Source: Phallusia mammillata (lineage: Eukaryota). Taken from it: a stretch of DNA of 64,000 nucleotides. The position numbers and the translations under genes were made by a program. Numbering within the stretch: position 1 is the stretch's first letter; the number at the start of each line of letters is the position of its first letter. The notes under the pieces were generated by a model that worked only from the letters and a program-made list of their open reading frames with translations, was not told where the DNA came from and did not search any database. Below, one piece after another: positions 1,316 through 47,750 of the stretch. The DNA is taken from assembly GCA_965637545.1 (NCBI GenBank), contig OZ281494.1, positions 14,074,001-14,138,000 of the forward strand, read 5' to 3'.

Positions 1316-4210
1316 GTAGCCTTTGTTTTGTATTTTTGTAGTTTTTTTTTACTTTTACTGTGTCAGTGAAATTATTTTGCAATGGGAAGCACATTAACAT
1401 TAAAAGTAATGCACATTAACCGCGATCTATGAATCACGAAGGACAATACTAGAAGTTGAACCGACCAGCAGCATGTAAGGCGGTGCAAGCACTCATAGCT
1501 CGCTGGCTGCATCACGACATGAAGTGATAAAGCTGTAATATAATTAACAGCACAGTGACAGAGCGAGCATTCCTCAACAAAACGAATCACTGCGAAAACA
1601 GCAACGCTGGCGCTTGTCAGGTAGAGGAAGGAAGCCTGCAATAAGCGCTCGTCGTTCCCTTATATGATTCCCACTCCCCAGCTACAGAACATTACGGATC
1701 ATCTAACTAGGTGCATTACAGGGGTGTCGAATTGAGGAGCTGTCATTACTCCCTGTCAATCAAGGTCTCTCGCAAGGAGCAGAGGAAGAAATGAAGAGAC
1801 TCCATGTCATCAGCAGTTCCTTAGTTACCTGTTGGTGCCTCGCTGCGTTTTACCTGTAAAGTAGATATGCGGAGCAACCGAGCGCCGCTTAAAATCTCCC
1901 ACTCTCTCTTACCATCATTCCTTCCTGTTCACGTGATCACTAGGTCCCGCGGGCCTTTTAATAAATATGATTAATGCGGCAATATCAGTTTGAAAAAATC
2001 CACACTAACGCTCCAGAGTGATAAGGATAGTAAGCCGTGTATTCCTGTTTAATGCCAAGCATCACATCATGGAACGCATCAGACTTTCAGGTTCTAGTTG
2101 TCGCAGTAAGACGTCGACTCTTCCGCTGAGTATCTTATTTATTCATGGGTTTGGTGTCTAGAAAAGCATAAAGGAGTGTAGAACTATCGTATTGAATAAT
2201 GAAAAAGAAAAAGTTGAAAAATTACTTCGCTTTGTTGCAAATTTTGTCACGTTGATCTTACGCCCAGCTAGTCAGGAATATTAATCCGTATTAGAAGTTT
2301 TGGCTTGATATAATATTACAATGCAGTTGTCAATGATATTTGAACCATGCATGCACTCGGGCTTTTGTAGAGCAACCACCTGTTGTTTATATTAAAGTTC
2401 AATGTCTCGCCAACAGACAGGAACCAATAACATTGTTCGTACGGAAACTGTAACCCATGACACGTGATGATACACTAGCACGTGTTGCAGCGTGAGCAAA
2501 AGACAGCTCAGTTTTCTCAGTTTAGATCAGGGATCATGCATAACAACAAGAAACATCTATCTAAAAATACAACTAGATGCAGATATTGGCCGACTTGTTT
2601 TTCAGAGTTGCAAAGAAAAAAAATAAGGTTTGTCAAGCGTAAGATCGACAATATACTAGTAAGGCAATATAGAGGTAAAGCAATATAAAGACCCAATTAA
2701 AAAAATGTTGCGTAGTCAGTAGCCTATTGGGTTTTGGTCATTATCAGCATGCTTATTCTAAAAGTAGTAACGCTCACAAGCCACGCAATCTACCGCTTAT
2801 GATACAAAATGTAACGGACAGCAAGTTAAAAAGTTTAAATGACTGTGAGTCAAAGCACGGTGTGGCAGAGTTATTTGCTAAATGCCATGTGTTGTTAGTA
2901 TATTGCAGGACTAAGCAGTGTTTGAAAACTAAACGAGTTGGTAATTTTTTAACGGGCCATTTAGTGAGAAAAAACAATGCATTTTCTGAAAGGTTTTGGA
3001 GCCTAGGCAAAAACTAACAATACGAATAACAAACTTGGTGAAAAAGTTTTACTCACAAAATAGATTTTTTAAGTCGTAAATGTCAATGAGCGATTTTGCT
3101 GTCGTTAAATCCTTAAAACACAAAAATTTATGTACTGTTGGCTGTTTGTTTTTGAGAAAGTTTTTTGATGGCGCAGCTTCAGGTAAATTTCAGCGAAAAT
3201 CTCGTTAAACAGTTGGCAAAGGGAGGTAGAAAATGTAATTAGTAATTAATGCTCTACGTGGAACACCTGTCGCATCAACATCATACAATATAGCCCTTCG
3301 CTGCAACAACACACGCACATCATGTTAGCAAATCTACAGCACATTTTTAACTATGATGCAATGACGTCATAAACGTTTGTCACAGTAGCCAGCATCACTG
3401 ATAGCCATTGAGGTCGTGTAACTGCTGACTGATGTTTTGAGATCACAGAGCTAAATCTGTTGTATTGTTGTCGTTGTAACTTTATCAGTCGGCAAGGGGG
3501 TTAGGCTGCTTCCACGAATTCAATGCATTGGGAGAGGGATGAATGAATTACAGGGGCTATTCAACGAGAAACATGAGTTTTGGCATTGTTTTGCGGCAAC
3601 CAGGCACGAGGCTTTAAGAAAGGCATATTAGCCAATTAATTAAGATCATTTACAAGTCTTCGACTTAACTTATAGGGTAGAGTGCCATTGCTAATGTATG
3701 AATAGGACCTTGACAGCAAAGCTGAGGAACATGGACCTTGGAATAGGCAAAACTTTGGATAAAGTGTTTTATTTTGGTACAAACAATCATTTTATAAATG
3801 CCTTCTTACGTAACATAAAAGGGCCTAAACAGGTGCTGTTACGTTTATAAGCAGCAAATTTTTCATAGAAATAAATGCTTCGCATCGACGTTAAACAAGT
3901 TGTTTTCGCCACAGATAAATCAGTGACATCATATTCATATATGAGACCTAATAATTCTGCATTGCCATTTTGCTTTAGTGAAGCAAGCTTGGTTTTTGAG
4001 ATCATGTTATAGCGTACAATCATTGCCAAGCATTCAAAACATTTTTTTTGTTGACTGTGCTTTTATAAAAATATTATTCAATAAAAATCAATTTATTTTG
4101 ATGTGAGGACTATAAAATGTTACCTGGTGACAACACCTGAGCACCATTGTCAAAGCCAAAATAATATCAGGATTTTTTTTATTGCAGTGGATGTTTAGGA
4201 TTACTAAATA

Positions 4211-7200
4211 ATGAACGCGTGTGGCGAGAATCGAATGGTCAATGAAACCTTTCAAGACCTCGGCGCTTACGTCAATTGCGATAGAGACAGCATGGTGCAA
4301 CATACGTCCGATTTACACTACCTGGAAAATTACAGGGAAGATATTACGCTCCCACCACTGGAAAAGGCCTTTCTGAGCATGAGGTCCACAAGGAACTCTG
4401 ACCGGTACATGGGATCCTGTCTAGTTCGGGAGGAGAACACCCTTGTCCCGTTTGACCTTACGAAGCCAGACCACGAAGATGAAGAAAAGGGGCCATTTTA
4501 TCTTGTAAACCAAGAAATGGGTGATACCATGAACCATGAACGGAATGATGTCATGAACAACGACGTTCTTCCAGTAAACGGAGTTGTCCAACCAAGTAAC
4601 AATTACTACGGTGACAGTTCCATGCAGGACACTTCAAATTACGGACCTATGATGTTTACTGCACTCTCGATTTCAGCGTCCAATTTGACTCTTTGCTCAT
4701 CCACGGCATCTAATGTGGTGATCCACGATCGCGTGTTTGAAAATTTGCCTCCATTAACGCCATCCTCATCTTCAAACTGTAGCCTGACTTCTTTGAAGAA
4801 AATCACGTCGTCCATTTCTGCAACCCCCATTTTGGATCCAGACTTCTTTCGTTCGAGCAAGCAACGTCGCCTCTCTAGCAAAGCGGGCCGCGGGATGCGG
4901 GGAAAAGGAGGAGGCGGGCGGAGGAAAAAGAAGGGGGGACGCTCAGATACCGGGGAAGAATCAGGAAAAGCAAAAGGAACTGATGCGACAGGAAAAAACG
5001 GTGTTTTCGAACAAAGTCATTGTGTAGAAAACAGGCGGTCAAGTACAGGAGAGTGCGCGATGCAGGATGGGGCGATGAGTCAGCAAGCAACTTTGGAAAG
5101 ATCACGACGCTCCAGCTCCAAATCGGATGCCCCGACATATGCAGATTTGAAGCCAACCAAAGGTATGGTTGAATTCGTTCAAAGCTATACCGTGTAAAAA
5201 CAGAGTCATGTTTTGGTAGAGGTTAATTATAAGCAAGTGTACACCCAATAAAATGTGTATGCTTGCCTGGCGGTTCTGTTGCAGTGGACAGACAAAGAAA
5301 TTATGAAAACCTTGAAAACTGTTCATGTGTGGCTCGAGACGGTAAGACATAGTAAAATGGCCTACGTTCAACGTAAAATAAAAAGAAGTGACAAAACGTT
5401 GTACAAAATAAAGCGTAGTGATCATTGATATTTAGGTTTACTATAGTTTCTCGCTTGTGTTTTATTGGATTGTATTTTTGGAATTACGTTTATCTCTGAT
5501 TACACAATAACGTTAGCTGGGGCACCGATCAGCCCTGAATATCCAACCTCGTGTTTTGACTACCATATATTGTTTCCATCAAACTCATGCATTTGCATCG
5601 TATTTTACATAACCCGTGACAGGACTACCCTAAGCACGCGCTTAGCCGAAAACATCTACAAGGTATCGAAGGAACTTGTTAAGGATGCCGCGTAATGTGG
5701 TACAGAGGAACAGAAAGTGGCGATTACCGACGATCGGCGCATTTGCCGCCGCTCGTTTGTTATGTTCATTTTACAAAATCGTGCCATGATGTGAGCAATG
5801 GCCAAATGTGTCCATGAAATATGGTCGCCGTTCATCAAAGCGAAACAACACGGTGTTACTGTAAACAGGGCGGGGTGCAACGAAAAAATGAGCCTAATCA
5901 GGGCGCTATAGAACTAAAGCCGGTTAATGTTTAGACCGACTGAGGCGTTAGGCAAAACTGCAAGTGCCTAAGGTGAAAATGAACCGCTGTGGTGATATTC
6001 TAACTTGCGTGTACCGGGTTAAGAATTGGGTAGCTTAACGAACTGCTTTTGTTGGCAGAAAGCGCAGTTGAGTGCGGTGGCTTGGGGCTCTTTTAAACTC
6101 TTGTAACCGGCTGTCAGGCAAAGTCACCTTGCGCGTGCAGTGTCTGCAAGCATCTGGAAAAACGCCCGACTTTGACTGATGTTGTGGTCTCTATAGCAGC
6201 GTGCCCGATCGTATTTATTGCACAGCTTACATGTGAGCGCTTCCGATATTGGACGCTCCATCGTCATAACAACGGCCCCTGAGTTGTTGCAACCACGTTA
6301 AGAACAATCACGATGATGTCCGGCCTATAGAAAGGTTTTCAAAACGGTGTTAGATGCGGCCCGGCTGCTGACTGTAGAAAGGCCGTAATATACCTACAGT
6401 TAAGTTAGAAATGAAAAAGATCAATTGCAGCATAAACGATTTGTTCATGGTGTCAGGCTTGAGCTACTTGACCATTGAAATCAGTTTTAGTTGCAGCGTT
6501 TTAGGGAAAGTCGTTTCTGTGGGGTTCACTCGTCAGGTAAGCGTGGCCCAGCGAATCACCAAAAATATGATCTTTGTTACAAAGTAAATAGTGAATATAA
6601 CGTTCCGGGGTTTTTGTTTCCGGTGACCTAACCCTCAGGACGGAGAAAAAGCATCATAGAACAATACTTTAGTTGTGACTGAAGATGCGTTGTGAGGTCA
6701 TCTATGCGTTATTGCACACGAGCGTGCACGCCACCGTCACATTAACGTCAAGGCATCCTGTCTTCTATCCGGTTCGAAACAGTTATTAATATTAACTGAC
6801 CGATAACAACAGCAAACTGGCGAAGATTGCCGCCCAGGTTTTGCTCCGATAAAACAGATTAGTATGTTAGTATACTATTGTAGTTCGGAGGGCGCTATAA
6901 GGAGTTTTATGACATTTGTAGGTTTGTTTGTCACGGCAGTCTGTCAGCAAAAAGGGTGTAATTTTTTTATCTCTGCTTGTGTTGAAATTGTTTTCAAACA
7001 ATTTTTGGAAAGTGAATTAAATACAAAAGTAGTGTTGTCTTGATACGCTGATGGTTCTTTTAATTTTTGTAGTGTCAATAAATATTTTTTTCGAAAAAAA
7101 ATTTCCCTAAAATTAGGCAGTTGTACTTTTAATGCACTTAGATACTAATGTACCAGAAGCGTAAAAAAATCCACAAATTAAATGTTTTTTTCAAAGATTT

Positions 7201-10200
7201 AATGCGTATTTTACGAATTACTTGAAAAACAAATGACTGCTGCTGTGTACGCTTTAGTTTTGGTAATAAAACAATACCGGTAATATGGTACATTAATTAC
7301 ACGCTAAGGGTGGAAGGTAGCAAGAAGAGGGTGACTCGAGTTGAGAGCGTTTTCTGACGAACAATACTCGTGTGTAAAGTCACGATCGCTATCAGACAAC
7401 AATGGAGAAAACAAACAATGCAAGTTTGCCTCAAAGGAACAATCCAATAAATAGCGACATGTGCTGATTCGATGTGTAGGATACGAATTTGACATCGCAG
7501 ACTGCTTGTAACGGAGGCGTAAAGTTACAACAGGGTCGCGTAGCAACAGCATCACCCTGTCGTATAGGGAAGAGATTACTTGTTCGGATTTCGTTCGTCA
7601 AGGAAACAAGCGCACTGTGTTTACGAGAACTTGTGATGGCTGATTGTCGTGATGCGATAGATACGAGTTTGGAAGCGTTGGTCCGTCCGCTGGAGGATAA
7701 AGTTTCACTTTAGCCCACGTGACCATACTGTAGGGTTTTGAAATAACCAGCTGTACATAAAAAAAAACTCAAAATTTTCCCACCTATCGGGCTGTTTACA
7801 GGTCGAAGGTCTGGTTTGTAAACATGAATCCTAACGCAAAGGGTTTTAACTTATTACCGAAATCTGCGAAGAGGTAAGCGAATGATAAAAACTTTGAGAG
7901 CCTGTGTCATATGTTATGTGGTTCTATTTACTTTAAAGTAACATAAGATAAAAAAAACATTTAACAAACAATAAGAATATTTTTCTGATCAGCTGACAAC
8001 CTTTTACAAAAACGCTTTAAAACATAGACAAATAAATTTATTTCCAAAACCAAATTAACGATACTGATCAACTTTGACTGAAAATTAAAACCTGCAAAGT
8101 TAGCTCAGTAGCAATCGAAGTTACTGACAGCAGTTGGGTGTTGTAACTTAAACACACGACCCTTGTACGCGACACAATGGGATATCCGTGGATTGCCTGC
8201 GCCCTAGCTCCCATATACTCTCAGTTTCCTTACAGGGAGTCGCTCCTTGTAAAAGATAAGATTCATAATGGTTTAACTATGGTGCACTTTATGAACCTAA
8301 TTCTTTTACTCTTATGCCGTGCTAAACTCCAGTTCGTTTCGGCTAATGAGTGGTCTCCAATGTCACGGCAGACTTAATCGTTTTTTGATAGCGAAGTTCA
8401 CTAGCAATGTTTGCAATAGACTCGCACAAGTCAGTTGGCTACGCAGAAAAGACACCTGAATCTACGAAGCGGTGACACGTGGAAATTTCCGCTAGCTCCT
8501 ATAGCTCCCCTCTCTGCACTGAACAGCTTCCTACTGACTGCTTTGGAGGTTAAATGGGTACATCCAGTGTTTTTTTAAGGTGTTCCGAAACGGTCCCCCA
8601 AATTTCTCAGCGGTTTCCCAAAATTTAATTTAACTAATAAATAATTCATTTAAGCAAATATGGCTATTTTTTGGTATTTAAATGAAACACTTGCGGTCTC
8701 TTAAAACTACTTAGCGGTCACCCAAACCAAACCTTAAAAAAACCTGGGTACATCATTGCAAAGTTTGCCTGGCAATAGTTTATTTTCAAGGCTGAATTAA
8801 AGGAGAAAAAAACTTTGCATACCATTCCTATTTAAACCGGTGTAATTAAAAACATGCATTTAACATGTGTACCTCGCTCAGTGGAGTAGCAATCTGAAAA
8901 CAACATCCAAGGTTACCCAACAGCGCCAATGACGTTTGGTGTTGCGTTTATGTTAATCGTGCCTGACTTCCGGACGAATTGTTTCATTGGCCTATTGCTT
9001 GTTTGTGTTAAAAGCGTTACATACGTCGTTATAGGTTTAACAGAAAATAAGATGCGTGTGTAATGCGTTACCCGTTTTTGGTCAAAATGGCCTGATAGGT
9101 TTCGCGTATGTGGTGGTTGATAAATCAAAGTAACCATTTACAGACACTTTAAAACTGATTGTTAACCAGACTGCGTGTAGTCGTTAAAACAAACTCGATA
9201 CGAAACAATTGTTTCAAGTGGCACAAACCATAAAAGAAGAAGTCAAGATAAAAGATTCATTCATTTGAACTTTTTTATCTTCGTTACAATGTAGCAAAGC
9301 TGAGGCTCGGCAAGCGCCTAAATTAGGTAATGGTTTACAAAAACAAATCCTATAAGACACCGACTTCGCCGCAAAACATGTGCAGATCTAGCCGTTACGA
9401 TTACGATTTACGAATCTCCTCAGTATTTAATGCCCTGTGCGTTAATTGAGTGGTGCCAAAGGACGATAGGGCAGGGTTTTACTGCGAAAAGATTAGTTTG
9501 AACCATTGTGTTCTTCAGTTGTACAGCGAAAGCAGCAATTTACGGGCGGCAGCAGAAATCGCTCGCACTGAATGGGAAGCGCTTAATTTTTCCTGCCATT
9601 GTGTGGCGCCCCATCCAATGACATGTGTCTGTCGCATGGCAGAAATTCGCGCCTTGCATCGAAAGCGCTGCTGGGTTGTCGGTTTAAAAGGGCCATACCA
9701 TTTAAAACAACATCAATTTATTACGAAGAATCCCGGTATGGCGAAATATGAAGTAAATTACTGCAGAACAATTTGAACACAAATACCACTACATGTCGAC
9801 AAACAACAATCCCTGTGTTGCAGCGGGTTTCGGACACCTTGTTCATATACCTTTGCCGTGAAAAAGCTTACACATAAAACCCGACCGTGGCAAACTGTTA
9901 AACAACGCTTATGTTGTTTACATGTGGCAACAAACACAAGCATTTCCTTGGGAAGTGCCCGCTGACCGCCTATTGTGCTGAGCGCCACGCGCGCCGATAA
10001 CTTTTAGAAATTGTGCGTACGCACACCGGCCATCCGGTACCAGCGTTATTGCGAAAAAACAACTTTTAGCGCTAATTACGTAGGGCTACTGCCTGCACAA
10101 AACCGCGATAATTTTGGGAATCGCGCCAACGCAAGATTGGAATCGTCAACCAGTTGGGCACGAGCGTACACTCAGGTTACTAAAACACGCCGCCGGTACA

Positions 10201-13200
10201 GGTAGTTTCCAAAAACTGGTCTCAATGGATCTGGTTTTCAGCTCGGACGAAGACTGTATCACGCATAGGCTAACGAAACCAGCTTATAGTAAGCTCGTCT
10301 TCTGGTATCTTCTTCCTGTGCATTTCGCAGGAGTTCGGGAGGATGCGCAATGTGCTTGTGTATATAGTTTAATGCGACTGCGGCGCTGATTTGTTGTTAA
10401 AAAAGCTCGCTACTTGCCTGCCTTTATCTGCCAGTGCAAGAGCTCTGTGTTATAAGATTCTGGTGTGCTTCCACAATGTCAGTGGAGTATAGGGCACTGA
10501 CAGTGATTCACTTTTACGGGAATGTACGCGCTGGGAAGGGAAATTTTGTTTTTAGCGTGAGAAGGCCAGACTATGGCAACTATATTAAGTCTATATTAAG
10601 TCTGGTTATTTGATTTGTTGTGCCAAACATCTAAAAAAAATTAAGGTAAACTGTATATACCGAGTAAAAGTAGGTGCGAGTAAAACGCAAGTTCAAATGC
10701 GCTTCTATGCGAATTATCAGCACTGCTGTTTGTTGTTCAGTTGAATTGTGAAACTATCCTATTTGTATGTTACCACACAGACTTTTTGTAGTGTAGTTTG
10801 TAAGTAATCACAAGTTCCGCTAGTGTTGACGCACAAATCGAATGGCATCACATCTGTATCACCAGAACGCCGAGACTCCAGCGAAAGTGTTTTGTTTCTC
10901 AGGTCCTGAATACGGTAAGCTTGTATTTTGGCCCGTTCTGTAACGAAAGCGTATTTTCAAACTTACCTGCAGATATACAGATACAGTATACAGATTTCGG
11001 AGATGTCTTCCTAAAAACGCAATGTAACTAAATGCTTCTGTTTTAACTAAATGATAGCTAAGAAAAAAATTTGAGGCGTTATAACATACAAAGTGTCATA
11101 CTCGTTTAGTGCCATATCAATCCAATATTTTTGTGTGTTTTTTTCGCTCAGTATGCATCAAGTTAATGTAAAAGAAATCGCTTAAAAAAACGTAAAATAG
11201 AGCAGACTAAAGCATGTTGCTTTTCTTGGTGACAAACAAATTTGCAATGGACTTTTTGCCGGAACTCATTGCGTCATGAAGTATTGCAGTGTTTTTAACT
11301 TTCGATTTACCTACATATACAATGGTTTTCCTTTACTACAGTATCTGTCAGGGTGAATCATTGCTGGTTTACGTCACACGCAAAACAACAACATGTAAAA
11401 CTGTCAGCATCACTTTTTGTCCGGACAGTCCCCATTTAGGTTTCCAAGAACAAAATGGCGCGGCATATCGAGGATGCGCCATTTTGATTTCCGCTTTCAC
11501 CTGTTTTCAATCAACATGTAATAAGTCATTTGAATGTTTGTTTGAACTGAACCTTATGTGGGGGTTTAATGATTCTTTCAAGTTGAATTAAAGACAAACA
11601 ACTGTTGTTTGGTTCTACAGAGTCAACAAAGCTAACATCATATCAGACGTAAAAAAAGATGATTTGTTGTTAGGCAACAATATAGTGATTAGTTTCTGAC
11701 TCATTTATTTAGTAATGTTATACACAGGATAATGTGATTGATGGCTACAACTTGCTGTTTTTGAATTCCGCACATCGATATTCTCAATTAATTTTACCCA
11801 GTTTACTTCGGACAGTTTAAGTTTGGGATTTTTGGACATTTGCTGTTCAACCAACTTATTCAAAACCAATTTTGACCCCACTACTGTTTCACTGTATTAA
11901 AACCCCGTATGCAACCACATCAGCCAATTTGGGGAGTCAACTCAAAATTTAGGTAAAAACAAATGTGTTTTTTGTTGCAGCAGCGGCTTGGAGGCAAGGT
12001 TGTACCGCAACCCTGTCTAGTCCAGGATCCGATTCCGGTTACTCTGACCACGTGGAGGCTTTGTGGGCCGGAAACAGACTTGGATTCCACAGTGCTCACC
12101 AGAGAATTCCGATTCAGCAGACAGACGGAGAGGCCGCACAGGTACATAATACTCTATTTCGGTTCAATTTCCTACTCAAACGCGCAGGTTGAAACGTTAC
12201 TTTAAGATTAAAATGGGTACAAGGTGTCTCCCTTCATTTGTAAATTTGTTTCCCATTAAGTCAGCCAGATCAACCGTCGGCATTTAAAGGTCATTCTAAA
12301 AGGCCATTGCATAGTCCTATACCAAGCAGATTAAAATGCCTTGAGATTCGTTTAACACCGACCCATATATCCAACATCTAATTTAAGCACACAAGAAACC
12401 ACAGCTTGGCTATTTTTGTTATGAAATACTTGTACTCAGGTCTGATGAAAGCTGTGATCTTGTCTGCGTCAGCGAAACTGTCAAATTGTGATGATGTTTT
12501 AATGACGCACAAATTCCATTCCACTGCTTGATGCTCTTTTGCGCATCTATTTTTAACTGCGCGTTTGAAGCAAGCGCAATCATTAACCCAACTAAAAACA
12601 ACTTGCCCACGACGCTAATAGTGTGTTAAAGTGTTAATGTACCTTTAAAATACTAGCTCGCATAGTTAGGCACGTGAAACAAAGTTGTTGTGTAGAAATT
12701 TACAATTAGTGTAATATTACAAACTTTCTCTTACAAACCAACATATAATATTCATTGGGCGACGTATTAGCAGACTGAAGCATGAAGTGTGCAATGTGTA
12801 ACATTGATAGTTGTTGCGCAATTTGGTTGTCATTCATGTGCATTATTTTATGCTGTCATTCACTGCAGCACCTTGCTTTCTTGACCCGCCAGCCACCAGG
12901 CAAGCGAGGCATGGACAATGACTATGCGAACAGTGATTGTGCCAGTACCATTGTGCACACACCTTTGCACTGTATCACTTCCTCTAGTCGCGCTGTGCTC
13001 GGTCGCATGGGGCAGCTGATCAGCTTGCTAGGTGTCTGGTCTTTAGCAAATACACCAGTCTTTCTGAAGTCTGCACAACCACGCTTTTGCTGTCCGTAAA
13101 AGCTGGTATGATTTAAAACAGCGCCGTTGTTAGCTTGTTCCTTGCGTCCGGCGTACAAGCGAATTAAGCTGCTGCCCAGCAGGCATACAGGTATCAACTT

Positions 13201-16200
13201 GCTTTGTTATAGTCATAACGTTTGCTTGAGAAATTTGAACACACCATTTTGATACCGGTCAATCTAAATAACCAGAGGTTGACCGCCGTAAAAGTATGTA
13301 ACAAAGGGTTGTGGGCGAATGGAAAAGAATATTTTCTGAGCAAAATATTCCGCATACGTTTTAATATAGATTTGACTGAGTTTTAAAACCCAAACGATAC
13401 TTATGCCTATGGTGTCATTATTTTCCACTGAATGTAAAACACGAACCATCACGGTAACGACATAAATCAGATCTAAAAGCCTTCGGTTGCAGTCTAACCT
13501 GCAATGCGGATGACCTTATAGTGTGTAATTACTTTTCTCATTACGAAAAGGATATCTAACATAACAAAACATTGTACGGGAACCGACAGACCTTGAGGTA
13601 ATTGAAGAGCGACATTGACGCAAGTTCGTGCGTAGACAAAGTCGCCGTTTTCCGTCCTGCGTCCTGACGCACAACCCGTTTCCATAACTGTTTCCTTTCA
13701 TCAGTAAACCGACACTTCGCGATAAATCAGGCCATTTAGTCTCAGGTAATTTGCTGCGAGGAAGCGACAAATTTCGTGCGTATATTGAACCGGGAATCGG
13801 ATACGGATACGAGCAGTTCGTCCATGTTACGTCGCCTGTACCGGGACACAATGTTTATTGATGATAAAACTGATCAGGAAAGATGTTTGGTCTAAATAAC
13901 CTTTACTAGAAGAAGGCAACACTAGTGGAAAATTTGGGACCCATAGTTCGATGGTAGTAAGGGTCTTTGTTTTGGGTGACCCAACATTGTAGTGCAAGGG
14001 GTAAGCATTGGGTTAATGCGTGACACGGCCTGAGAAACAATATGGTAAAGGGCAAATGATATAAACTCCAGGGATTGCTGAAATGCATTGTAGACCATAG
14101 TACCAATGGCTTTAAATACCAATGGCTTTTAAAGGATTTACCTCCAAAATACCCAACAAATGCAACATTCCCTTCTGCTTTCACATAATTCGTTATTTAG
14201 CCTCAAAATGTATGTTTCGATTTATTATAGCAACCAGCTACCCCATGAGTTTAAAAGCGTCATATGACTTTTAAACAGTTTTGGACAGCTTGGTAACTTT
14301 ATATTGGTTTGGTTGTCTAGCCACCAATGAGAACATCATTCTCACCTGCATAATAAGACATTAGTTTACCGACAAAAAGACGCCAGCCCTGTATCCCGCG
14401 CGCTCGACGATCGTGACCCATCAAGATAAAGAGAGTTTATCCGGGGTCGCCCCCTCCTCTTAATCAATACAAACAGCGCCAAAGCAATAACAGTGATTAA
14501 CTATACACTAATAAGCGGCGCACCATCAACAAAATCAATTTTTCCTAATAACCCTTCCGCTACATGCCGACTATGTAGCACGTATATTCACATCACCGCC
14601 ACGACTTTGCTTCACACACTACAAAAGTGATCACATGGCGCGACCGACGTTAAAGACATGCAAACGCGAGGATATTTTTACCAGAACTATTTAATCTCTA
14701 AACTAGGTTGTAACAGATTTTTTTTCCAAATTGAAATACACATTTGACCTTCGCCAAACTGGTGCCATAAACGCAGAATCTTTTGAAGTTATTTAAAGTG
14801 CCATTTTGGGCCTTAAAACCAGTGTGATATTTAGGCCTCGTTCTCCACCTCGGAGTTGAACGGAGCCGATGCAGCCCAGCACTACTATAACTTCGGAGCC
14901 AGCGCCCAACCCGAAGATCACGTGTTCAAGGAGCCCAATGCCGTCCATCCACGTGAACCAGGAGTTGTGTCATACTCCCGAAGTATTGCCACACCCCATC
15001 ACCAGCATTCGCCCGATGCAAATAAAAGGTGTGTTGAAATGAATAGCGATTGAGCTTCAGCGAATTGCACAACCATTACCTCATGGGAAGTTGAATTGAT
15101 ATTGAATAGACTGCGTTTTTTTGTATTGTATTGATATAATTTAAGTTTTTGCGTGTTATATGCAAAATTGTACTGCATCTTCTGCAGAAGACTAAGAGCA
15201 TCGCGTTACTATTTTTATAAATATTTTGTTCACCGAACACTTTTTTAATAGCTTATAAATGTTCTGTATTATTTGTTGGAATTGAAGAGGTGATCAAAAT
15301 GTAAAGATTTTGCCAATAAATAACTGTAAAATGCATCTATAGAATTAAATTCTGTCAACGCATTGTACTGTAAGCTGCAACCAGTGCACACTGCTTCGAC
15401 CTAGTATGCAACTTACTTATCTATTATTGAATTACTGCTTTTGAACTGAACTGTACTATGTTTTGCACAGAAGCAGTTTAGGCGAAACAAGCGAAGGTTG
15501 CACGTACACCAACAGCAGCACCACGCCTCAATTCGTTAGCTACGCCGGTTATTCTTACCCGGGCTACGAAGGCGCGCAGTCACAACTTATTCCGGCAGCA
15601 GTAAGTGAATTTCAGGCCGAGCTTGCTGCGCACGGAGAAAGCTTATACACCCAGCTGAACGGGGCCCAGAACGCCGCGGACCTTAAAATGATTCCACACA
15701 CTACTGCGATGTCTGAAGCCCACCACTACAACGCGCACAGGGGCTCAACACCAACCGAGAGCCATCCGACAATGCCGTATCTTTATGCCGAAGCATCGGC
15801 TGTGGCACAGAACTACCCCCAACACCCGCTCGCCAACTCCGAGCTACATGCCAATATGACCCCTGCTGAATTCTACAACCGCGAGCATTTCCAGTATCAA
15901 CAAGTCCTCCAGCAAGGCATGATGCCCCTGGACGGGTCAGCAGCGCTCGCTGTGCCCACGAGTCAGGGAAAATTCCCCCACGCCGCTGTTTTCAACCGTC
16001 AGTACCGCAACCAATTGGAGAGCATCGCAGAACGAGCAAAGATGCGATTACAAGACAACACTCATTTGCACGACGAGGCAGTTGCTGTCAACCCGATTAT
16101 TAACATACAGGAACTCACCGGCTACACGGGTAAGTAAGAAACATGCAGCGTTGATTTTCGACGCATGTTTGGTGTCTGCGCCCTTGTCATATCCAGTTAC

Positions 16201-19200
16201 TGCAGTTTCAGCAAAGTATCTGCGACTAAAGGTTAAAACGCCGCTACTATAGCAGTACCAAGAAACAGTGTTATGTACCCCATCATGTGCTCAAAAATTA
16301 AAAGCCAAATCAGCTAAGCTTTGCAATGAAGTGCGGGGTTTGCAGAGAGTCTTTTGAAATATTTGGATTGCAGTAGTTTGACAAATAAACATGCATTTTA
16401 ATCGTTTTTTGCTGAGGTAAATGAATCAGACGTAATGTGGATCTGTTATGAATGACAAAATTTTATAATTGCTAGCATTGCATATACAGCGCACTAAGGT
16501 CAAACTGCGATTCATTTAAAAGCATTTTTTCGTAAAATATGTTTATAAATAGGTATTGTAGCCAAATTATTGAAATTTTCATTTGGGGGACAAAGCAACT
16601 GCATGCGTAAAAGAATATGAAACCGTGCATTTTGCAAAAAATCAGCCATTTGAATGCATTCCAACAAACGACAAACGCATATTGGCGGCATGGCACAGCG
16701 AGCAGCTGTTCCGCCCAACCCACCCAAACTTTCGCGCTGTTCGGACGGAGGTTCTCGCACTCGCGGAATTGAAGATGGTTGCGCGGCGAATATTGGGTGG
16801 ATGCGGCTTGTGAGGATTCGCGAAGTAGCGTAAGATTTCGGGCGAAACCGCGGGCAAATCAATGAAAATATCCTGTTTCACTTCTCAATTTGCACCGCAC
16901 CCGCTGGCCACGCGTTTTTTCTTTAGCGTTTTTCTTTAGCCCAGTGAGCTTCTTCCTCGCATCGCTGACACTATAGCTAGCACGTTGTTGGAACAAAGTT
17001 TATTTGGGTCTATGCGATAGATTGACTTACTATTAATTAAACGAAACGCCCACTTAATAACCGTTTTTAGCGCTCTAAAGAAGCGATTTTTTTTTTACAA
17101 GTATTATTTATTTGGTACAGAAATTTTCTAAATCTATTTGTCGGACGCTTGATTATATCCTTTAAACATAATAGTTACCAGCGAACTAAAACAAATTTTA
17201 CAAATGTTTCGTGAAAGGAACAGCGGAAAAAACTAACCAAACGAGATAATCTTGTGCGGACAAGCTTAAAAATTATAGCAGAAAAAAATTGCTTATAGGG
17301 GAAGACTTTTTTCCGGTTAAGCTCGCAAGTTTAGTCCCACTTTTTCATAGAATTAAAACGCGTCAAATTGGGTATTCTCTGCAAGGGTAGCCTATCCATC
17401 CAAAAAATAAACGAAGGAAAACTACGCGGAATGTGAATGGTAAAATCCAAAGGACGAAAACTGGGCTAAAATCCCTGTGGAAAGTACATAGGCCTTCGCG
17501 TGACCGGACATATACCGAGAAAATCTCCGCAACAAATATCGCGCTGCCGTTGGATAGTCAATAAATTGTGATCCGCTTAAACTGTGCCCGCAAGAAAGAC
17601 AGGAGCTGCTCGGTTATGAACAAGATGTTAGGCAGATTGGCAGACGCGTTTCAATGAAATTGGACAACAAACAACCAATTTCTGCTTCTTGTCTATTTAA
17701 TAAAACATTCAACATTGTGTTGATCAACGCCTGATCGAGCCATTGTCAATTTCCCTTTTATTTTATTTTTTGCACTGACTTGCCGGTCGCGTGGCGTTTA
17801 AATGCAAGTTCGTGTCTTTGTGCCAAACTTTGAATCAAATGAAACAAAATTTACATAAAAATAAACAATAAAGTATTCAATAAAACAAGTTTAGAAACCA
17901 AAATAAGCTAACCACTCCTCACACTTTTTTATTTGCGTTTCATAAATGGTTACCGCAAAATCATGGTGGAATACTTTTACACAGCATGTACCACAACGTT
18001 TGTTTATTGAAGTGTATTGATATCAAAATAACAAAAACAACTGAGGAACTAGATAAACGAAAACAGTTATTAAGACCGCACATATTTTTTTGCGTGAATA
18101 GTCAACGCATCTAAGCAATTTAGACACATTTAGTAAAAAATACTGCAAGTAGCCCATTTGATATAGGCCTATACGTCTTCTTGACTTTAATTTGTTTCGC
18201 ATGAGGATAAATCTAAACATTTTAAACCTGTAAAAGCCACACGATCGTAAAACAGCGAAAATTTTGAACACATAACACAGTAACATTGCATCAATATGTA
18301 AATTACAGCGTAAATTCGACAGGATTGTAGCAGTTCGCTTAACAGTTATGGGATATCGAACAGTAATACTTCACAATACTTTATTGTTGTGTGTTTTGCG
18401 CTTTAAGGTAACGGACCAATCCAACTGTGGCAGTTCCTTCTCGAGCTACTCTGCGACCCAACGTGCAAGCATTTAATCAAGTGGACGGGTGAAAGTTGGC
18501 AATTCAAAATGGAGGAACCCGACGAAGTTGCCAAGTACGTTTTGTTTGTTGCAACCTTTTTAATGAATACAAACTGCCACATAATTTATGTAATCCATAA
18601 CACGCAGTGTATTGTCTGCTACAAGTGGATTGTGTTTTTTTACTGCATTTTCGTAATCAGTAAATTCTTATGTTGGACTCTTTTTCTCTGGAAGTTTGAT
18701 GGTTGGCAGTTTACCAAGAATAATACCTATTTTATTTTACATTTCGAAAATAATACATTTCAAAATTAAATTTTACTTTGCATATACTTCTTGCCAATAC
18801 AGGATAAATTTACTTATAATGTATACTTTGGCATTGCATAAAGCGGTAAATTATACTTACTATATATACGCAATATTTACTCTCTATTACTTTGTTGTTT
18901 TATTTATCCACTTTTTGCGCACGTTTTAGTCTAATGGGCCGTTTTTGCCCAAAATAACTATTTAACCATTTCCCTTTTTTCGCAGGCGATGGGGAATGCG
19001 CAAGAACAAACCGAAGATGACGTACGAAAAACTGTCACGTGGAATCCGATATTACTACGATAAAAACATCATAGTCAAGTGCCCGGCCAGGTATGTCAAT
19101 TAGCCACAACCGACCATATAGCCATTCCATCATCCTGCAATGACTGACTTGTAAAGTTTTGTATTTGCGAAATTATGAAGGGCAGCGCACGCTTTCGGGG

Positions 19201-21691
19201 TCATCGCGAGGATGTGTTGCTCTATATTGATATCTTGGCAGCCAATTATATGTTAGACGCACTTTGCACGACAATTAGGTATTTGTTTAGAGATTAATTG
19301 TTTCATTCCAAGGAGTGATACATTTGGTATTAGTTAAGTTGGTTTTATTTCGCGAGGTATAAGAAAATCTTTGCGACACGTTTTCATTGAAGCAATAACC
19401 GAGCAGGAAATTGCTGGGCATCGTTGGAACGCTTTTGAGCGCAAAAAATAAAGGTTAAGCTGCAGTTACAGAGGTGTTTTTTACTGGGGCTTGCAAAAAA
19501 GTAAATTTAGATGATGTAGGTAAACATAACTAACAAAAAATGTGTGGTCGATGTTTTTTTCTGAATCCTTCGCAGCTAAATGATTTAAAATGAATGCATC
19601 GGGCGCAAGGTAGAGAATTGTATTCAGATAGTTTATTCATGAAAACAAGTTACAGCAACGTATGGCAGAAACTTGTAAGTTGTTTAACGACTGCCATTTA
19701 AACACGGGGGTTTATTTATCTACGTCCAAATAATCGTTTTGTAACTATCTAATTTAAATAAGCATTAGACGGAAGTTTTTAACACATATTCCAGTGTAAA
19801 TTTGTCGTCGGTAGCAGATATCGATGGTAGTGTACAACCATTGGGTGTTTTTTTTATATTGACGTACAGTAACCATACCTTGTATCAGAAACAAAGTCGA
19901 ATTAGGCGCGATTATCAAAAAAAAATCAAGGACATTTTTATTTTGTTAGGCGATACGTGTACAAGTATGTCAATGACCTGGAGAAAATACTTGGAATCTC
20001 GTCGACCCAACTTCACAAAATGTTAGGGATCAAACCGCTTAATGAGGATGGGGAGGAAATCATCACTAGCGATACAGACGTGAAAAGGGAGCCAGAATCA
20101 CCCCAACATCACCCACAGGGGGCAGTGGGTGGATCCCCTCATGTTAACTCCGCCACCCCAGGCATGTTGCACCATAAATTTGACATTTAATGTTGAGGTG
20201 TTGTTCTTGCAAAAACGATGTTTGTCACTAAGGCACTGACCGTCCTTTGCGCTGTGGTAATTTACATGCCAAACAATAATGGGATAATGTATTTCTTGCA
20301 CCTTTTTATTGGGTTAATATTAGTTCTTTATGTGGGTTTGCAACAGTACAAAATTTTTGTTACAAGTCTCACAATGTTGGACCATGAACATTCAAGTGGC
20401 TTTAAAAGGTCGTTATGACTCACATCCTGCATTGCAATCGCCAAGGGCGCGACATTGCTAACCGCTCTATAAATCCTACAGACGTAACCAACGAGCAACC
20501 AACCACGGAGTCAGGCCACCACCAGACCGGGGAAATATCCACCAGTGCTGGGGTGACGCCCCCTATGTCCAACGGTCCTTCACCCACCATGCATTACCAC
20601 CCCCAACAACAGCAACCGCAACAACACCAGGGGGGCAGCGACTCACCTTCGATCATGATGACACAACAGCAACATGCGGCCATGCAGCATGCCCAACACG
20701 CAGTGACCCAAGCTGATGTAGGAACCTACCCATCGCCGCAGCAAATTGCCGGTAAGGTTTAGCTCGGCGCACTTTCATGCACAGGTACATGGGCTTCGTC
20801 CGGGAAGGAACATAGAAATTTGCCGTTTGACTACAGAGTAAACGACCTTGATCAATGGGTCTCACTCGAGCGACGTTTCCCGTTGTCGACTCGACAACCT
20901 GCGATCCTCCGCCCTTTCGCTTTTGTTTCGGTCGTCGCAGATCGGAAAAGGGTGTGAACGAACGCGCGCGCGGAAGGTAAACAAAACGCGCCGGAGATTC
21001 GATTATTGCACGTCCTTTCGCTGATGCTAATAGCTGGCGAATATGCACGGAGGAAAAGAGATATATGGATGTTGACATCCATAAGTGTTCACACCCATTT
21101 CCGGTTTTCGATTAATATACTAACATATGCGAGATCAACAAAACTTGGTTGTTTCATTTTCAAACAACAGACTATGAACAAATATTTACTAAGTCTTGGC
21201 TAATGCTTGTAAATCTTGCAGCTCAACAGTCTAAAGGTAACTTCGATGAATGGATCGTCGGAATTTCCAACAACAGCAACGTGCGGGGCCAGCAGCAGGA
21301 AACTATGGACGATCTGAGGAAGGGACATCAACAGTCGCACCAGCAGCATGTTATTCAACGACAGCACTCCATGCCATGCAACAGAAGCTCACCGTCAGTT
21401 GATCTGCACAGCACCAGCGCTACGCCACCTGCCGGCCAAATGGTTCAGTCTGTAATGGACGGCAATGGTCACTATCAGGCAATGCGGGGTGTAGAACAGC
21501 AGCCAGCTGCCGAAATGTCCCAAACTCGGTTAAACTCCAACGCCAATAACAACAGAACGAGCCCGAGAGATGCTAATACCACGCTACAACCAATTTATCA
21601 GAGAGAAGTGGACGTGGAGAATGAAGACCACCGTCTTGCTTTGTGCCGGGACAATAGATTCGTTGCATGCAACGGTGATATACAGCCGTAG
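4211..21691 (+). CDS. ETS1/2: Ets1/2 (pointed) family ETS transcription factor, long isoform (~1049 aa)
   Basis: Phase-consistent exons: 4211-5162, 11981-12141, 14835-15028, 15471-16129, 18408-18534, 18986-19090, 19950-20161, 20482-20751, 21222-21691 (3150 nt). The spliced ETS domain reads [98 protein letters not shown], matching the ETS1/ETS2/Pointed signature ([18 protein letters not shown]...[15 protein letters not shown]). Exon 4211-5162 contains LPPLTP and ends in a phase-1 AAG|gtatgg donor. The family call is firm; joining the first exon is inferred. Confidence 0.8.
8565..8746. mobile_element. hAT-like MITE, 182 bp (family shared with 51488-51656)
   Basis: Ends CAGTGTTTTTTTAAGG...CCTTAAAAAAACCTG; perfect 8-bp TSD GGTACATC (8557-8564 / 8747-8754). 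Confidence 0.9.
10842..21691 (+). CDS. ETS1/2: Ets1/2 family factor, short isoform from alternative first coding exon (~756 aa)
   Basis: Exon 10842-10914 ([24 protein letters not shown]) has an upstream acceptor (cacacag at 10780) and a phase-1 TACG|gtaagc donor. It joins in frame to the shared exon at 11981. Confidence 0.65.
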
Positions 21692-29525: not shown

Positions 29526-30080
29526 TTAGCTCTCCTGAACCGCTTCCATCTTCTCAATGTTGATTGGAATTTCTTTAGGCTTTTCCTCGGGCGGTGGCAA
29601 AGCCAGAAGTGGAGCCTTTAACTTGAGAATTCCCTGCTCGTTGAGTGTAGAAGTCAGTTGGTCCGCGTTAACATTTTCGGGCAGCACAAGTGAGCGATGA
29701 AACTGTCGTCGAGAGTAAGATTGGTGTTCCTCGTCCTCGTGGTGATCTTCTGTCACTGCATCCACCACAACCTTATTTCCAGCCATCTTAACCTTCACAT
29801 CTTCTGGTTTAAAGCCGTGCAAGTTAAAATTGCAAGTAAAACTGTTTGGGTCTGATCTTTCTACATCCATTGATGTTCCAGCACCCATATCATCTCCAAA
29901 TACACCCTTGACCTTATCCTCGTCAAGCAAATTAGGTAGGTGATAAAGCAGTCGCTCAAGGTCGTTAAATGAGCTTTGTCTTCTTGGTGGAAAACCTGGC
30001 GCATAGTGGAACGGGTGTAACCAGCCTGGCGCATAATCTGGCCTGATCAATCCCCAATGAAATGGTCGAGGTTCTGTCAT
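29526..30080 (-). CDS. Small heat shock protein (HSP20/alpha-crystallin), copy A, 184 aa, intronless
   Basis: Alpha-crystallin domain (FNLHGFKPEDVKVK...YSRRQFHRSLVLPENVNADQLTSTLNEQGILKLKAP) and C-terminal IPI motif. First ATG is at 30080; the ORF track starts at an upstream TTG. Confidence 0.93.
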   Translation of the reverse strand: MTEPRPFHWGLIRPDYAPGWLHPFHYAPGFPPRRQSSFNDLERLLYHLPNLLDEDKVKGVFGDDMGAGTSMDVERSDPNSFTCNFNLHGFKPEDVKVKMAGNKVVVDAVTEDHHEDEEHQSYSRRQFHRSLVLPENVNADQLTSTLNEQGILKLKAPLLALPPPEEKPKEIPINIEKMEAVQES

Positions 30081-30165
30081 TTTGCTGATTGCTAAACTGC
30101 CTACTTGTGTCAAAAACACCTTAACTTGTACAGACAATCTGCTGGATGTACAGAGTAACGCGCTG

Positions 30166-30240
30166 CTTATAAGCTACCTGCAACACTCAGTGCGCGACTC
30201 CTGTCACGTACGCGTAGACTATTGTCGAAATTTCGCGACT
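30166..30240 (-). promoter_or_regulatory. TATA box and heat-shock element of sHSP-A
   Basis: TATAAG on the minus strand (30171-30166); in-phase pentamers aGACt aTTGt cGAAa tTTCg cGACt at 30216-30240. Confidence 0.65.
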
Positions 30241-30564
30241 TTGCTGGCATAGACATCATTGCGTAAACAACTTACTACACTCGAGATCCTAGACATTGTT
30301 GGTATTCTATATCATCATTGACATAGGCATAGTTTCTGAAAAATGTCAATAAAAGTTAAGACTGAATAAAAAAAATATTTCCTCAACGGCAAAAAATTTG
30401 ACTCGCCTTATATGTCAACAAAACAAGTTGACTGCTTCGCGAAATCTCGCGTCATGTCCACGCACGTGACCTGAAGACTGTGACGTAGAAGTTGTAAACA
30501 TTGTGTGCGTGTTGCAAAATACAAAACAACCTTACCGCAGGATTATGTTTTGGGAGAAAATATT

Positions 30565-30616
30565 ACAAATTAGCATAAGTTATTGTACACCACAAATTAG
30601 CATAAGTTATTGTACA
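30565..30616. repeat. Tandem duplication, 27-bp period
   Basis: acaaattagcataagttattgtaca occurs twice, separated by cc. Confidence 0.85.
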
Positions 30617-30834
30617 TCTTATTTAACTCATAACAACATTCATGTTTGTCTGCATATTCGTATTAGCGACACACTGTTGCAATTTATGAACACCTTCATC
30701 AAATAAAACTTAATCAACCTAAAAATGACATTCAAATTGCTGCAAACCGAGATGTCGTGTTTTTTGACATGTAAATGTCGCGCATATTCCGATTTTGACA
30801 CGGCGTGTAACGCATTTGCACCGTCGTTGCATCA

Positions 30835-30864
30835 CGAATTTTCTATTGCGCTCTAGAAAATTCG
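30835..30864 (+). promoter_or_regulatory. Heat-shock element of sHSP-B
   Basis: cGAAt tTTCt attgc gCTCt aGAAa aTTCg in register, ~80 bp before the ATG. Confidence 0.7.
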
Positions 30865-30945
30865 CACTCACAAGGACACATTTTGAAAAGTAGTGTGGTA
30901 ATTGAAACAGCTAGTTGGTAAAATTGTTAACTGAAAAAACAAAAA

Positions 30946-31479
30946 ATGTCCCTTCGTTTGATTTTACCTGTTTATCGCAATTGTCGAATGTTTTCGAGGT
31001 GGCCAAGAAGATACGCTTGGGATGTTTTTCCAAGAATGGAGCCTTTTGTTGAGATGGAAAATAGGTTTCGTCGTATGACAGAGATTTTCGACTTTCCATC
31101 CACGCAATACTACTATAAGGACATGAACAAGTGGATCACTGACAGCACAGACAGGGCAAATTTTACAAGAAAGGTGTCCTTGATTGGATTTGAGCCTAAC
31201 GACATTAAGGTAAGGCTGAATGGAAACAAACTGGTCGTGGAGGCGAAAAGAGAGATCGAGGACAAGGGCCAAGAAAGCGACTCTTACACATCTCAACAGT
31301 TTTACTCGACACTGACAATGCCTGAAAATGTGGATCTGGCAAAACTGAGAATGAGTTTGAATAATTCAGGCACACTAAAAGTCTCTGCTCCTCTGCAATC
31401 TGTGGAAGATGGGTGCACAGAAACTGAAATTCCGGTGGACGTTGAAACAGACGCAAAGTCCACAGGCAAAAACAAATAA
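30946..31479 (+). CDS. Small heat shock protein, copy B, 177 aa, possible mitochondrial presequence
   Basis: Alpha-crystallin domain (VSLIGFEPNDIKVRLNGNKLVVEA...LTMPENVD...LNNSGTLKVSAP), IPV motif; Arg-rich, acid-free first 25 aa. Confidence 0.92.
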   Translation: MSLRLILPVYRNCRMFSRWPRRYAWDVFPRMEPFVEMENRFRRMTEIFDFPSTQYYYKDMNKWITDSTDRANFTRKVSLIGFEPNDIKVRLNGNKLVVEAKREIEDKGQESDSYTSQQFYSTLTMPENVDLAKLRMSLNNSGTLKVSAPLQSVEDGCTETEIPVDVETDAKSTGKNK

Positions 31480-31960
31480 ACAGTTAAACGTGTATTAAAG
31501 AACGCTGTATGTGTGAAGTTGTTGACTGTTGTTCGTTTCTTTTGTTGTGTAATAAATATTCATTCACATGATTTAATTGACCTTTTTTGTGATCAATGAA
31601 CATTTTTCGGCCGAGAATTAAGACAAGCAAAAACCAATTTGTAGATGTTTGTGGTAAACAAAAAGCGATGTTTAGCTCAGTGTTCTTCAATTTACAAAAC
31701 CAGCCTGAAAGACGGGTTGTTGGTTTTATACGGCGTTTCAAAGTTATAAACAATTTACCAGAAAATAGGTAAAAACCTAAAAAATGAGGAATTATCATGT
31801 GGAAAGTTATCAAATTAAATTAGGTCAAGTTTAATTTCTGCAACAAACGCATTTCAATAACAGCAAATAATGTTTTCCCAGAATGACGCAAGAATCAACA
31901 GCGTGCGGCTGGTCACGTCTGGCGCTTGCGCTGGGCGTGCCTTTTTCGTTTTTAATCGAG

Positions 31961-32028
31961 AGAATTCTCTCGAATATTCTGTGTACGTGAGGTGAAAGGC
32001 GTAAAAGGCTGTTTTCGGCACATAAATA
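31961..32028 (+). promoter_or_regulatory. Heat-shock element and TATA-like box of sHSP-C
   Basis: aGAAt tCTCt cGAAt aTTCt at 31961-31980; CATAAATA at 32021. Confidence 0.75.
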
Positions 32029-32094
32029 CTCGAGCGTGATTTGTGCTCAGAAACTTTTCAGAAAAGCAGCCGTTTGCGATCAAACCGAGCAGTC

Positions 32095-32904
32095 ATGGAC
32101 AAAGTTCACAGACCAATCGACTGGGATTACTGGAACCCGGGGGATTCATATCGCTTCTTCGACCGGACAAGACCGACCAGCACGACAGGACCGCGACCGT
32201 ACCATTGGGGATTAATCAGGCCAGAATACGCCCCAGGATGGCTACACCCGTTTCATTATGGGCCAGGTTTCGATTGGGGTGGTAATATAATAAAGAATGC
32301 AAAAATCTCAACCAGCGGAATGACAGAGCCTCGACCACGTTATATGGGTACAGTCCCGCTAGATGTTGCCATAGGATGGTTAGTACCTTTTAACCATGCG
32401 CCAGGCTTCGATGAGGGTGCTGACACATCAAAGAAAACTAGTGGCTCCACAACCAGCGCAACAACAGAGCCTAGACCCCGTTATATGGGAACAGTTCCGC
32501 TGGAAATTGCCATAGGATGGTTAACACCTTTTCATGCGCCAGGTTTTGATGGAGATGATATGGGTGCTGGAACATCAATGGATGTAGAAAGATCAGACCC
32601 AAACAGTTTTACTTGCAATTTCAACTTGCACGGCTTTAAACCAGACGACGTGAAGATTAAGATGGCTGGAAATAAGGTTACGGTGGATGCAGTGTCGGAG
32701 GATCATCACGATGACGAAGATCACCAATCGTACTCTCGACGACAGTTCCATCGCTCACTTGTGCTGCCCGAGAATGTTAACGCTGACCAACTGACTTCCA
32801 CATTCAACGAGCAGGGAGTTCTCAAGTTGAAGGCCCCACTTCTGGCTTTGACTGCGCCAGAGGACAAGCCGAACGAAGTTACCATTAACGTGGCGAAGGT
32901 GTAA
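32095..32904 (+). CDS. Small heat shock protein, copy C, 269 aa, three N-terminal repeats
   Basis: Alpha-crystallin domain nearly identical to copy A; three copies of PRP..G.....A.GWL.PF...PGFD; first ATG at 32095. Confidence 0.93.
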   Translation: MDKVHRPIDWDYWNPGDSYRFFDRTRPTSTTGPRPYHWGLIRPEYAPGWLHPFHYGPGFDWGGNIIKNAKISTSGMTEPRPRYMGTVPLDVAIGWLVPFNHAPGFDEGADTSKKTSGSTTSATTEPRPRYMGTVPLEIAIGWLTPFHAPGFDGDDMGAGTSMDVERSDPNSFTCNFNLHGFKPDDVKIKMAGNKVTVDAVSEDHHDDEDHQSYSRRQFHRSLVLPENVNADQLTSTFNEQGVLKLKAPLLALTAPEDKPNEVTINVAKV

Positions 32905-45524: not shown

Positions 45525-45564
45525 AGCGTTCAATTAAGCGCGATGTGGTTCTGTTGTTTTAAAA

Positions 45565-47256: not shown

Positions 47257-47750
47257 GCACGAACTTGGCCATCAATTCGTCTAAGTCAGTGTGCAGAACG
47301 GTTTTGCTTCACTACATTCTTTACCTTTTTACGACTACCTTTTAAACCTAATTCCATTGTGCCAGTTAGCCTGTCTGATGCCAAATTGCTGGTTCGGAAA
47401 TGCAGTCGCTCAGAAAACTTTGTTAGATTTTAATGGTTGGGAATGAATATGTTTCACAGCTATATAATTTTCACCAGAAGATTGCGGTTTTGTCAAAAAC
47501 AGTTATCGAGGGAAAGTATTTGGTAATAGCAAAGTAATTTGTACTAAAGGACTTGGATTTGCGATTAAAGCCACAAAAGACCATTGAAATAGTACTTTAT
47601 TGTTTTCAAAGAAGAAAGGTACAGAAAATAATATTTTCGAAAGTTTTAAACTGTACTGTATGCATAACATTTGTATTCCCGTGCAGGTTCGAAACTGCTA
47701 TTGTTTAGGACTTTAGGTGGAAGTGCTTAACCAGCATATTTACTGTAGCC

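Follow-up and report, generated by a model that had tools for sequence, protein, structure and literature searches.

Introduction

The locus described here raises the question of whether an Ets1/2 gene that lacks a PNT domain can have kept the ERK phosphoacceptor of ETS1 and ETS2. The gene lies in a 64,000-nucleotide stretch of Phallusia mammillata DNA, the whole of which we call the window, and an initial annotation had read the string LPPLTPSS in it as a kept phosphoacceptor, placed at the vestigial entry to a PNT domain that had apparently been lost and replaced by a basic Gly-rich tract. The PNT domain has roles in ERK docking and in CBP binding.

In ascidian models of FGF/ERK signalling, activation through ETS sites is assigned to Ets1/2.b, and published work describes this gene (Ets.b, Ets/pointed2, Ets1/2.b or KH.C10.113) as a MAPK effector (PMC4356046; PMC10530022; bioRxiv 10.1101/2023.12.20.572557). 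Another conserved Ets1/2 protein, one that lacks PNT and has almost the same recognition helix, could compete for such sites or set an ERK-independent baseline at them, and the motifs of its first exon would offer precise residues for mutation.

We hypothesise, with a probability of roughly 0.6, that a PNT-less Ets1/2 paralog, a predicted ERK-uncoupled factor of GGAA sites, has the segment within its first coding exon, in which a conserved block would bind cofactors, a bipartite basic tract would direct nuclear entry and the PLTP sequence would be a look-alike of the ERK site.

Structure and identity of the gene

The residues on which the initial annotation relied had been read correctly, as all of them share one open frame of the + strand (4208-5194): LPPLTP at 4745-4762, SLKK at 4790-4801, PILDPDFF at 4826-4849, QRRL at 4862-4873 and a ten-residue segment at 4904-4933. 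Over 4745-4960 the assembly agrees with two public DNA runs, in which neither alternative letters nor indels occur, and contigs from these runs are unbroken over 2959-8593 and 8723-20400, the gap between them being a high-copy repeat. Using tblastn with orthologs together with splice phases, we predict a product of 1066 amino acids with a single stop, encoded by nine exons that are separated by seven GT-AG introns and one GC-AG intron:

4188..5162, + strand: exon 1, first coding exon of an Ets1/2.a-type gene, 975 bases, 317 amino acids
4211-5162, + strand: coding part of exon 1; boundaries are an acceptor before 4188, the ATG at 4211 and a phase-1 donor after 5162
11981..12141, + strand: exon 2, from tblastn with the Ciona, Clavelina and Styela orthologs
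14835..15028, + strand: exon 3 (predicted); phases fit, and VFKEPN is common to the Ciona ortholog
15471..16129, + strand: exon 4, ending in a 15-residue segment directly before the ETS core
18408..18534, + strand: ETS-domain exon A (PF00178, E 1.3e-11; 95% identity to the Ciona and Clavelina orthologs)
18986..19090, + strand: ETS-domain exon B, with recognition helix LSRGIRYYY (PF00178, E 3.9e-13)
19950..20161, + strand: ETS-domain exon C and beginning of the C-terminal tail, with a predicted GC donor
20482..20751, + strand: predicted C-terminal exon 8, from frame and phase fit only
21171..21691, + strand: predicted last exon, mainly from frame; FDEWI is similar to FDDWI of Ciona

Some minor features accompany this model. 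The intron at 20162-20481 is the predicted GC-AG intron, and without its splicing a stop at 20188-20190 would give a shorter C-terminus. Upstream of the main ATG there is an open reading frame of six codons (4191-4211), the stop of which overlaps that ATG (TAATG). At 4428 the window has G and both DNA runs have A, which changes Arg73 to Gln and reflects either an allele or a difference of the assembly. Intron 1 contains, at 8569-8746, a MITE-like short repeat of high copy number, bounded by 13-base inverted ends. Six putative RNA runs covered essentially this repeat alone and yielded no splice junctions.

The model would be in error if a PNT exon lay concealed in an intron, in an assembly gap or far upstream, or if exon 1 and the ETS exons were not spliced together. 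All junctions are indeed predicted, and Ciona has records with and without the exon-1 homolog, the latter being short, while no short first exon of the Ciona type was found in intron 1. However, the nine exons form one frame with a single stop, full-length records of Ciona, Clavelina and Styela have this block and this ETS domain in one protein, the DNA contigs are unbroken except at the short repeat, and the searches for a PNT domain set out below came back empty, so we regard an error of this kind as very improbable.

The product belongs to the ETS family by its PF00178 matches and by both arginines of the recognition helix (LSRGIRYYY in the predicted model). The best relatives of ETS exon A are proteins of Ciona, Clavelina and Styela, with 86-95% identity, and the nearest named matches of the ETS domain outside the tunicates are ETS1/2-like. 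The gene is a tunicate Ets1/2 paralog, likely the 'Ets1/2.a' of Phallusia mammillata, also named Ets/pointed1. Its orthologs are the Ciona 'ets transcription factor' (NP_001071950 / XP_026692316), Clavelina LOC143462988 and Styela LOC120336579, which share with the window gene an ETS domain as the only domain, the exon-1 block and the LSSP site of exon 2, as well as an 11-residue helix. The three orthologs differ from the window gene in lacking PxTP and QRRL and in having a linker in the basic tract that is not Gly-rich.

It was also observed that one 11-residue segment encoded at 18986-19090 is present in 7/7 a-type ETS domains, versus MNYEKLSRGLR in the b paralog and vertebrate ETS1/2. A shifted preference for flanking bases is a possible consequence of this altered recognition-helix segment.

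The b paralog and the place of the gene among ETS factors

The genome has a second Ets1/2 gene, on another contig (C2), which is Ets/pointed2 or Ets1/2.b. It encodes QEVPTG, PLITPG, the helix that follows and a full PNT domain, the exon of which matches Phallusia Ets/pointed2 at 100% identity. In two trees the window gene falls into a clade with six PNT-less a-type proteins, with support of 100/98 and 100/100. It also groups with Ets1/2, apart from ERG, GABPA and ELK, inside the 23-row ingroup and on a branch uniting a and b at 82/81 (unstarred), and the deep forks are open in the other ETS-domain tree. A grouping of the a type with a PNT-less clade from sharks is absent from the best ETS-domain tree but is not rejected by it (p-AU 0.146), which counts against the history that we prefer.

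With b (KH.C10.113) and vertebrate ETS1 and ETS2 the window gene shares the ETS subfamily and a ten-residue start, and with b also two intron positions within the ETS domain. The differences are that b, ETS1 and ETS2 have the phosphoacceptor, the helix and the PNT domain, none of which is profile-detectable in the window gene, and that its ETS domain sits on a longer branch (0.56). It therefore stands apart from the ERK-switched group of ETS1, ETS2, PntP2 and Ets1/2.b in three respects: 1) it has no PNT/SAM domain; 2) its phosphoacceptor is not conserved; and, 3) no homology of its block to their helix was found by profile. Drosophila PntP1 and vertebrate ETV2 likewise combine an ETS domain of the Ets1/2 type with no PNT and no switching through a PNT phosphoacceptor, although PntP1 is an isoform of one gene, whereas the tunicate forms are separate genes.

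Contig C2 holds b plus four ERG/FLI-like genes (L001, L002, L004, L005, L006), and the window gene is on a different contig, C1. ETS1 and FLI1 are linked, and the linkage on C2 agrees with the view that b has stayed in the ancestral position.

Absence of the PNT domain

That this is an Ets1/2 paralog without a PNT domain was borne out. The PNT profile used was built from ten sequences and scored 15-54 bits on 8/8 control loci, and against the window plus 10 kb upstream (4990 six-frame fragments) its best match reached 7.7 bits (E 1.5). This search, which is of the SAM_PNT type that the initial annotation had suggested, also upholds its reading by eye that no PNT exon lies between 5163 and 11980, with no PNT match among the intervening exons. 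Quarters of the profile and tblastn gave no further PNT signal in the window and the 10 kb upstream, and the Pfam profile PF02198 has nine matches genome-wide, none on the contig of the window. The 655 amino acids before the ETS core contain only two Trp in the predicted model.

The orthologs from Ciona (P0047/P0048), Clavelina (P0003/P0050) and Styela (P0006), and P0007, also carry an ETS domain only. Because this holds for the full-length orthologs of Ciona, Clavelina and Styela, the loss of PNT is old and common to these genera. The claim that the PNT domain had been lost and replaced by a basic Gly-rich tract thus stands as to the loss, but the loss is shared across genera and not particular to the window, and the richness in Gly is local. 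As far as can be judged from these sequences, the loss is real but old, and lies within an ortholog group that is already annotated.

A probable look-alike of the ERK site

The feature which suggested a kept ERK switch is the following:

4745..4768, + strand: LPPLTPSS, resembling the ERK phosphoacceptor of ETS1/2, in this species only among 11 sequences

The ETS2 string to which it had been compared was given essentially correctly, as confirmed with skink ETS2 (P0014) and ETS1 (PDB 2jv3), and the resemblance itself exceeds chance. The profile score of LPPLTPSS was reached by 0/2000 shuffles of the exon, and by 0/46 protein pieces and 0/400 six-frame pieces (0/446 background pieces together). 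Looser patterns are commoner: of 100,000 shuffles, 12% contained some PxS/TP and 0.8% contained P.[LIVF]TP, and the latter is also found in 5/46 protein pieces, which come from two protein groups, and in 4/400 six-frame pieces. The HMM match to the phosphoacceptor ends after 8-9 residues, the register of SLKK on ALKA scores -3.4, which is not above chance, and the spacing from the T to QRRL is 35 residues versus 22 in ETS2. Of the resemblance said to extend as far as QRRL, the 8-mer therefore survives, but the remainder is not above chance and QRRL is out of register.

To compare the segment among relatives, exon 1 was searched against 1.84 billion representatives, which gave eight hits, seven of them homologous exon-1 open reading frames; two unrelated repeat proteins of one cluster, P0057 and P0065, were left out. 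The resulting set of 11 comprises the window, these seven frames and the Clavelina, Ciona and Styela proteins, so that 7/10 comparison sequences are exon-1-only frames which were assigned by motif. One fetched locus (L032/L033) ends before any ETS exon, and no PNT was seen in it.

Within this set, PxS/TP occurs in 1/11 sequences, QRRL in 1/11 and QRR in 2/11, whereas SLES is found in 9/11 and a 12-residue segment in 10/11. The closest relative, P0053, is 58% identical over the whole exon and has ENPVTTSSS where the window has an 11-residue segment with PLTP. The initial annotation had staked its reading on PLTP and QRRL being conserved in orthologs, and each is confined to one sequence. Moreover, P-x-[IVF]-T-P-G is present in 7/7 tunicate b-paralogs, so the idea that the a gene had kept the ERK phosphoacceptor fails by comparison. 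A preserved switch is unlikely because the ERK-type site occurs in one of 11 related sequences. PLTP is likely to be a look-alike at the level of the species and not an inherited switch, most simply explained, from its distribution, as a gain in this lineage; it may nonetheless be phosphorylatable by ERK in vitro.

Is the exon-1 block a vestige of the PNT entry?

A comparison beyond the tunicates is instructive here, since shark and ray proteins named 'c-ets-1-B-like' (P0015-P0025), which may belong to the ETV2 lineage, are PNT-less Ets1/2 relatives too. Eight of them (P0015, P0016, P0018, P0019, P0020, P0023, P0024 and P0025) have FP.L(T/S)P and the helix and then no PNT, which is the arrangement that the initial annotation had proposed for the window gene.

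One possibility is that the segment in the window likewise derives from the exon with the ETS1/2 phosphoacceptor; the PNT exon would then have been dropped, the helix remodelled past recognition and the T-P kept in this lineage alone, where ERK could use it. The sharks illustrate that such a remnant can exist, and the 8-mer match beyond chance is what this origin would leave. There are Pro-rich words near the same place in Styela (NLPPPTT and LKAL), Ciona (PPxxP) and P0053 (PVTT), possibly the decayed remains of a single ancestral motif, and LPPLTPSS is closely followed by a helix-like block, as is the ETS1/2 site; both observations count against our preferred explanation. The spacing from the T to SLK is at most one residue off that from the T to ALK in ETS2. 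Exon 1 also ends in phase 1 and the PNT exon of the b gene is apparently phase 1-1, as inferred from translations, so a clean loss of that exon would be possible.

However, such descent requires that T-P was lost in each of the other ten, among them P0053 with its 58% identity, and QRRL is 13 residues out of register. Exon 1 continues for about 100 more codons before its intron, versus a few in the b gene, and QEVPTG, which lies upstream in b and ETS2 (QQVP in sharks), is not seen in it. There is also no profile homology: with HHalign, the profile of ten ortholog sequences matched 16 canonical ETS1/2 entries with a probability of 0.07%, and 161/200 column shuffles did as well, while the eight shark and ray proteins, run as the control, reached 94.55% (E 7.4e-8). 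These shark and ray proteins thus retain a recognisable vestige of the phosphoacceptor and helix, and the tunicate block does not. Four sub-blocks compared with the whole PNT were matched or beaten by 45, 50, 48 and 11 of 60 shuffles, and in an ungapped scan including Styela the best score was equalled in 2133/5000 shuffles, compared with 1-10/2000 for five shark controls. The vestigial PNT entry therefore finds no support in a test which its control passes. We still reserve a small but real chance for it, because short remodelled segments can escape profile tests.

Two individual correspondences were considered and rejected, as neither has profile support, namely LDPDF as what is left of the LAPDF loop of PNT and DPDFF as the equivalent of DPRQW.

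Conserved motifs of exons 1 and 2

What is conserved in exon 1 is a different set of motifs, with one further site in exon 2:

4349..4375, + strand: LPxL(E/D)x(A/S/T)FL motif, 9/11 a-type sequences
4784..4816, + strand: LxSL(E/K)xL(A/T)SSI block, pattern in 11/11; SLKK of the window is a local variant of SLES (9/11)
4826..4849, + strand: P(I/L)LD(P/A)(D/E)(F/L)F acidic-aromatic motif, 10/11; PILDPDFF is absent as such in Styela
4859..4933, + strand: two-part basic tract (KQRR ... RRKKK), 12-16 K/R in 32 amino acids plus a bipartite pattern, 10/10
5138..5152, + strand: (Y/F)(A/T)(D/E/K)L motif at the exon end, 9/11
12013-12048, + strand: S-P site of 12 residues in exon 2; LSSP in 4/4 full-length proteins, DSG(Y/F)SD in 3/4

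A conserved block of 22 residues is followed by the two-part basic tract; a Lys stands four places after the Phe of the acidic-aromatic motif, and the second basic cluster comes some 16 residues further on. The AlphaFold model of exon 1 is mostly disordered (mean pLDDT 43.9), with its highest values, 57-63, on residues 201-220. The block may resemble helix III of the MyoD family and TAZ1-binding peptides; PF12232 and PF02135 had no match in the genome, probably because of split exons. In a word-limited search of exon 1 against longer proteins, 0/2866 candidates were accepted, Pfam gave nothing near its cut-off for exon 1 and eight relatives, and in the PDB exon 1 had no match and the exon-1 alignment only two chance-level hits. 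The motifs of exons 1 and 2 had no match in Pfam or the PDB and no usable hit in the ESM Atlas, and the genome has no second copy of the block. No description of the Ets1/2.a paralog or of the motif set was found in the openly readable literature that was searched; within it, the conserved and unnamed exon-1 motif set is new.

In the window, Clavelina and Styela the S-P site of exon 2 is followed by DSGxS, which is altered in Ciona. The S-P/DSGxS arrangement resembles a phosphodegron of the beta-TrCP type. From its conservation, the S-P site is a better candidate than PLTP for an input from a kinase.

The textbook bipartite nuclear-localisation signal has a linker of 10-12 residues. The basic tract has the bipartite pattern in 10/10 sequences, with a linker of about 16 residues, and is likely to be such a signal, as predicted from the pattern. 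The number of Gly in the linker varies from 0 to 9, and it is Gly-rich only in the window and P0053; these two have two RG each and the other eight none (2/10 sequences with RG), which falls short of an RG/RGG domain. Because of this variation, KQRR is best read as the putative first half of the signal and the richness in Gly as local drift. The 'NLS/RG-like segment' of the initial annotation can thus be retained for its two basic clusters, while the RG part is found only here and in P0053.

A proposed role for the a paralog

Without a PNT domain the known route for docking and CBP binding is missing. We propose that Ets1/2 was duplicated in the tunicate stem, after which b would have kept the ERK/CBP module and a would have lost it and gained a different N-terminal exon. 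The a protein is predicted to act on the same GGAA sites uncoupled from ERK, entering the nucleus via its basic tract and binding cofactors through short motifs. Its control would lie in transcription and the choice of first exon, possibly with turnover through the S-P/DSGxS site, and the Ciona records with and without the first exon suggest that block and nuclear signal may be isoform-dependent. Activation appears more probable than repression, given the acidic-aromatic DPDFF and the analogy with Drosophila PntP1.

The opposite sign of action has to be considered, in which the block would serve to bring in a corepressor or to hold down the protein itself, and a would compete with b at GGAA sites and so buffer FGF/ERK output. 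The recognition helix is intact and common to a and b, LxxL(A/T)xxI resembles the pattern of short helices that bind corepressors, and PNT-less ETS1 isoforms act as competitors. However, DPDFF and the long disordered region rich in Q, S, P and H are more typical of activation domains, and no known repressor family is among the Pfam matches; we consider repression unlikely. Bolder, and distinctly improbable in our judgement, is the idea that the labour of PntP1 and PntP2 is here divided over two genes, that the 22-residue block and LPxLExxFL form a cofactor-binding module which replaces PNT, and that PLTP, retained or regained beside this module in the present species, restores ERK control without a PNT docking site. 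The general importance of an ERK-uncoupled a paralog is modest, because a preserved ERK switch is unsupported and PNT-less ETS factors are common.

Other genes in the window

Other open reading frames of the window were compared by eye only. Four clustered frames at 29529-34601 resemble small heat-shock (alpha-crystallin) proteins, a single frame of 728 amino acids at 37889-40072 is like an amino-acid transporter (SLC38-like), and several similar frames at 44874-58570, apparently a tandem array, are like beta-1,3-galactosyltransferases.
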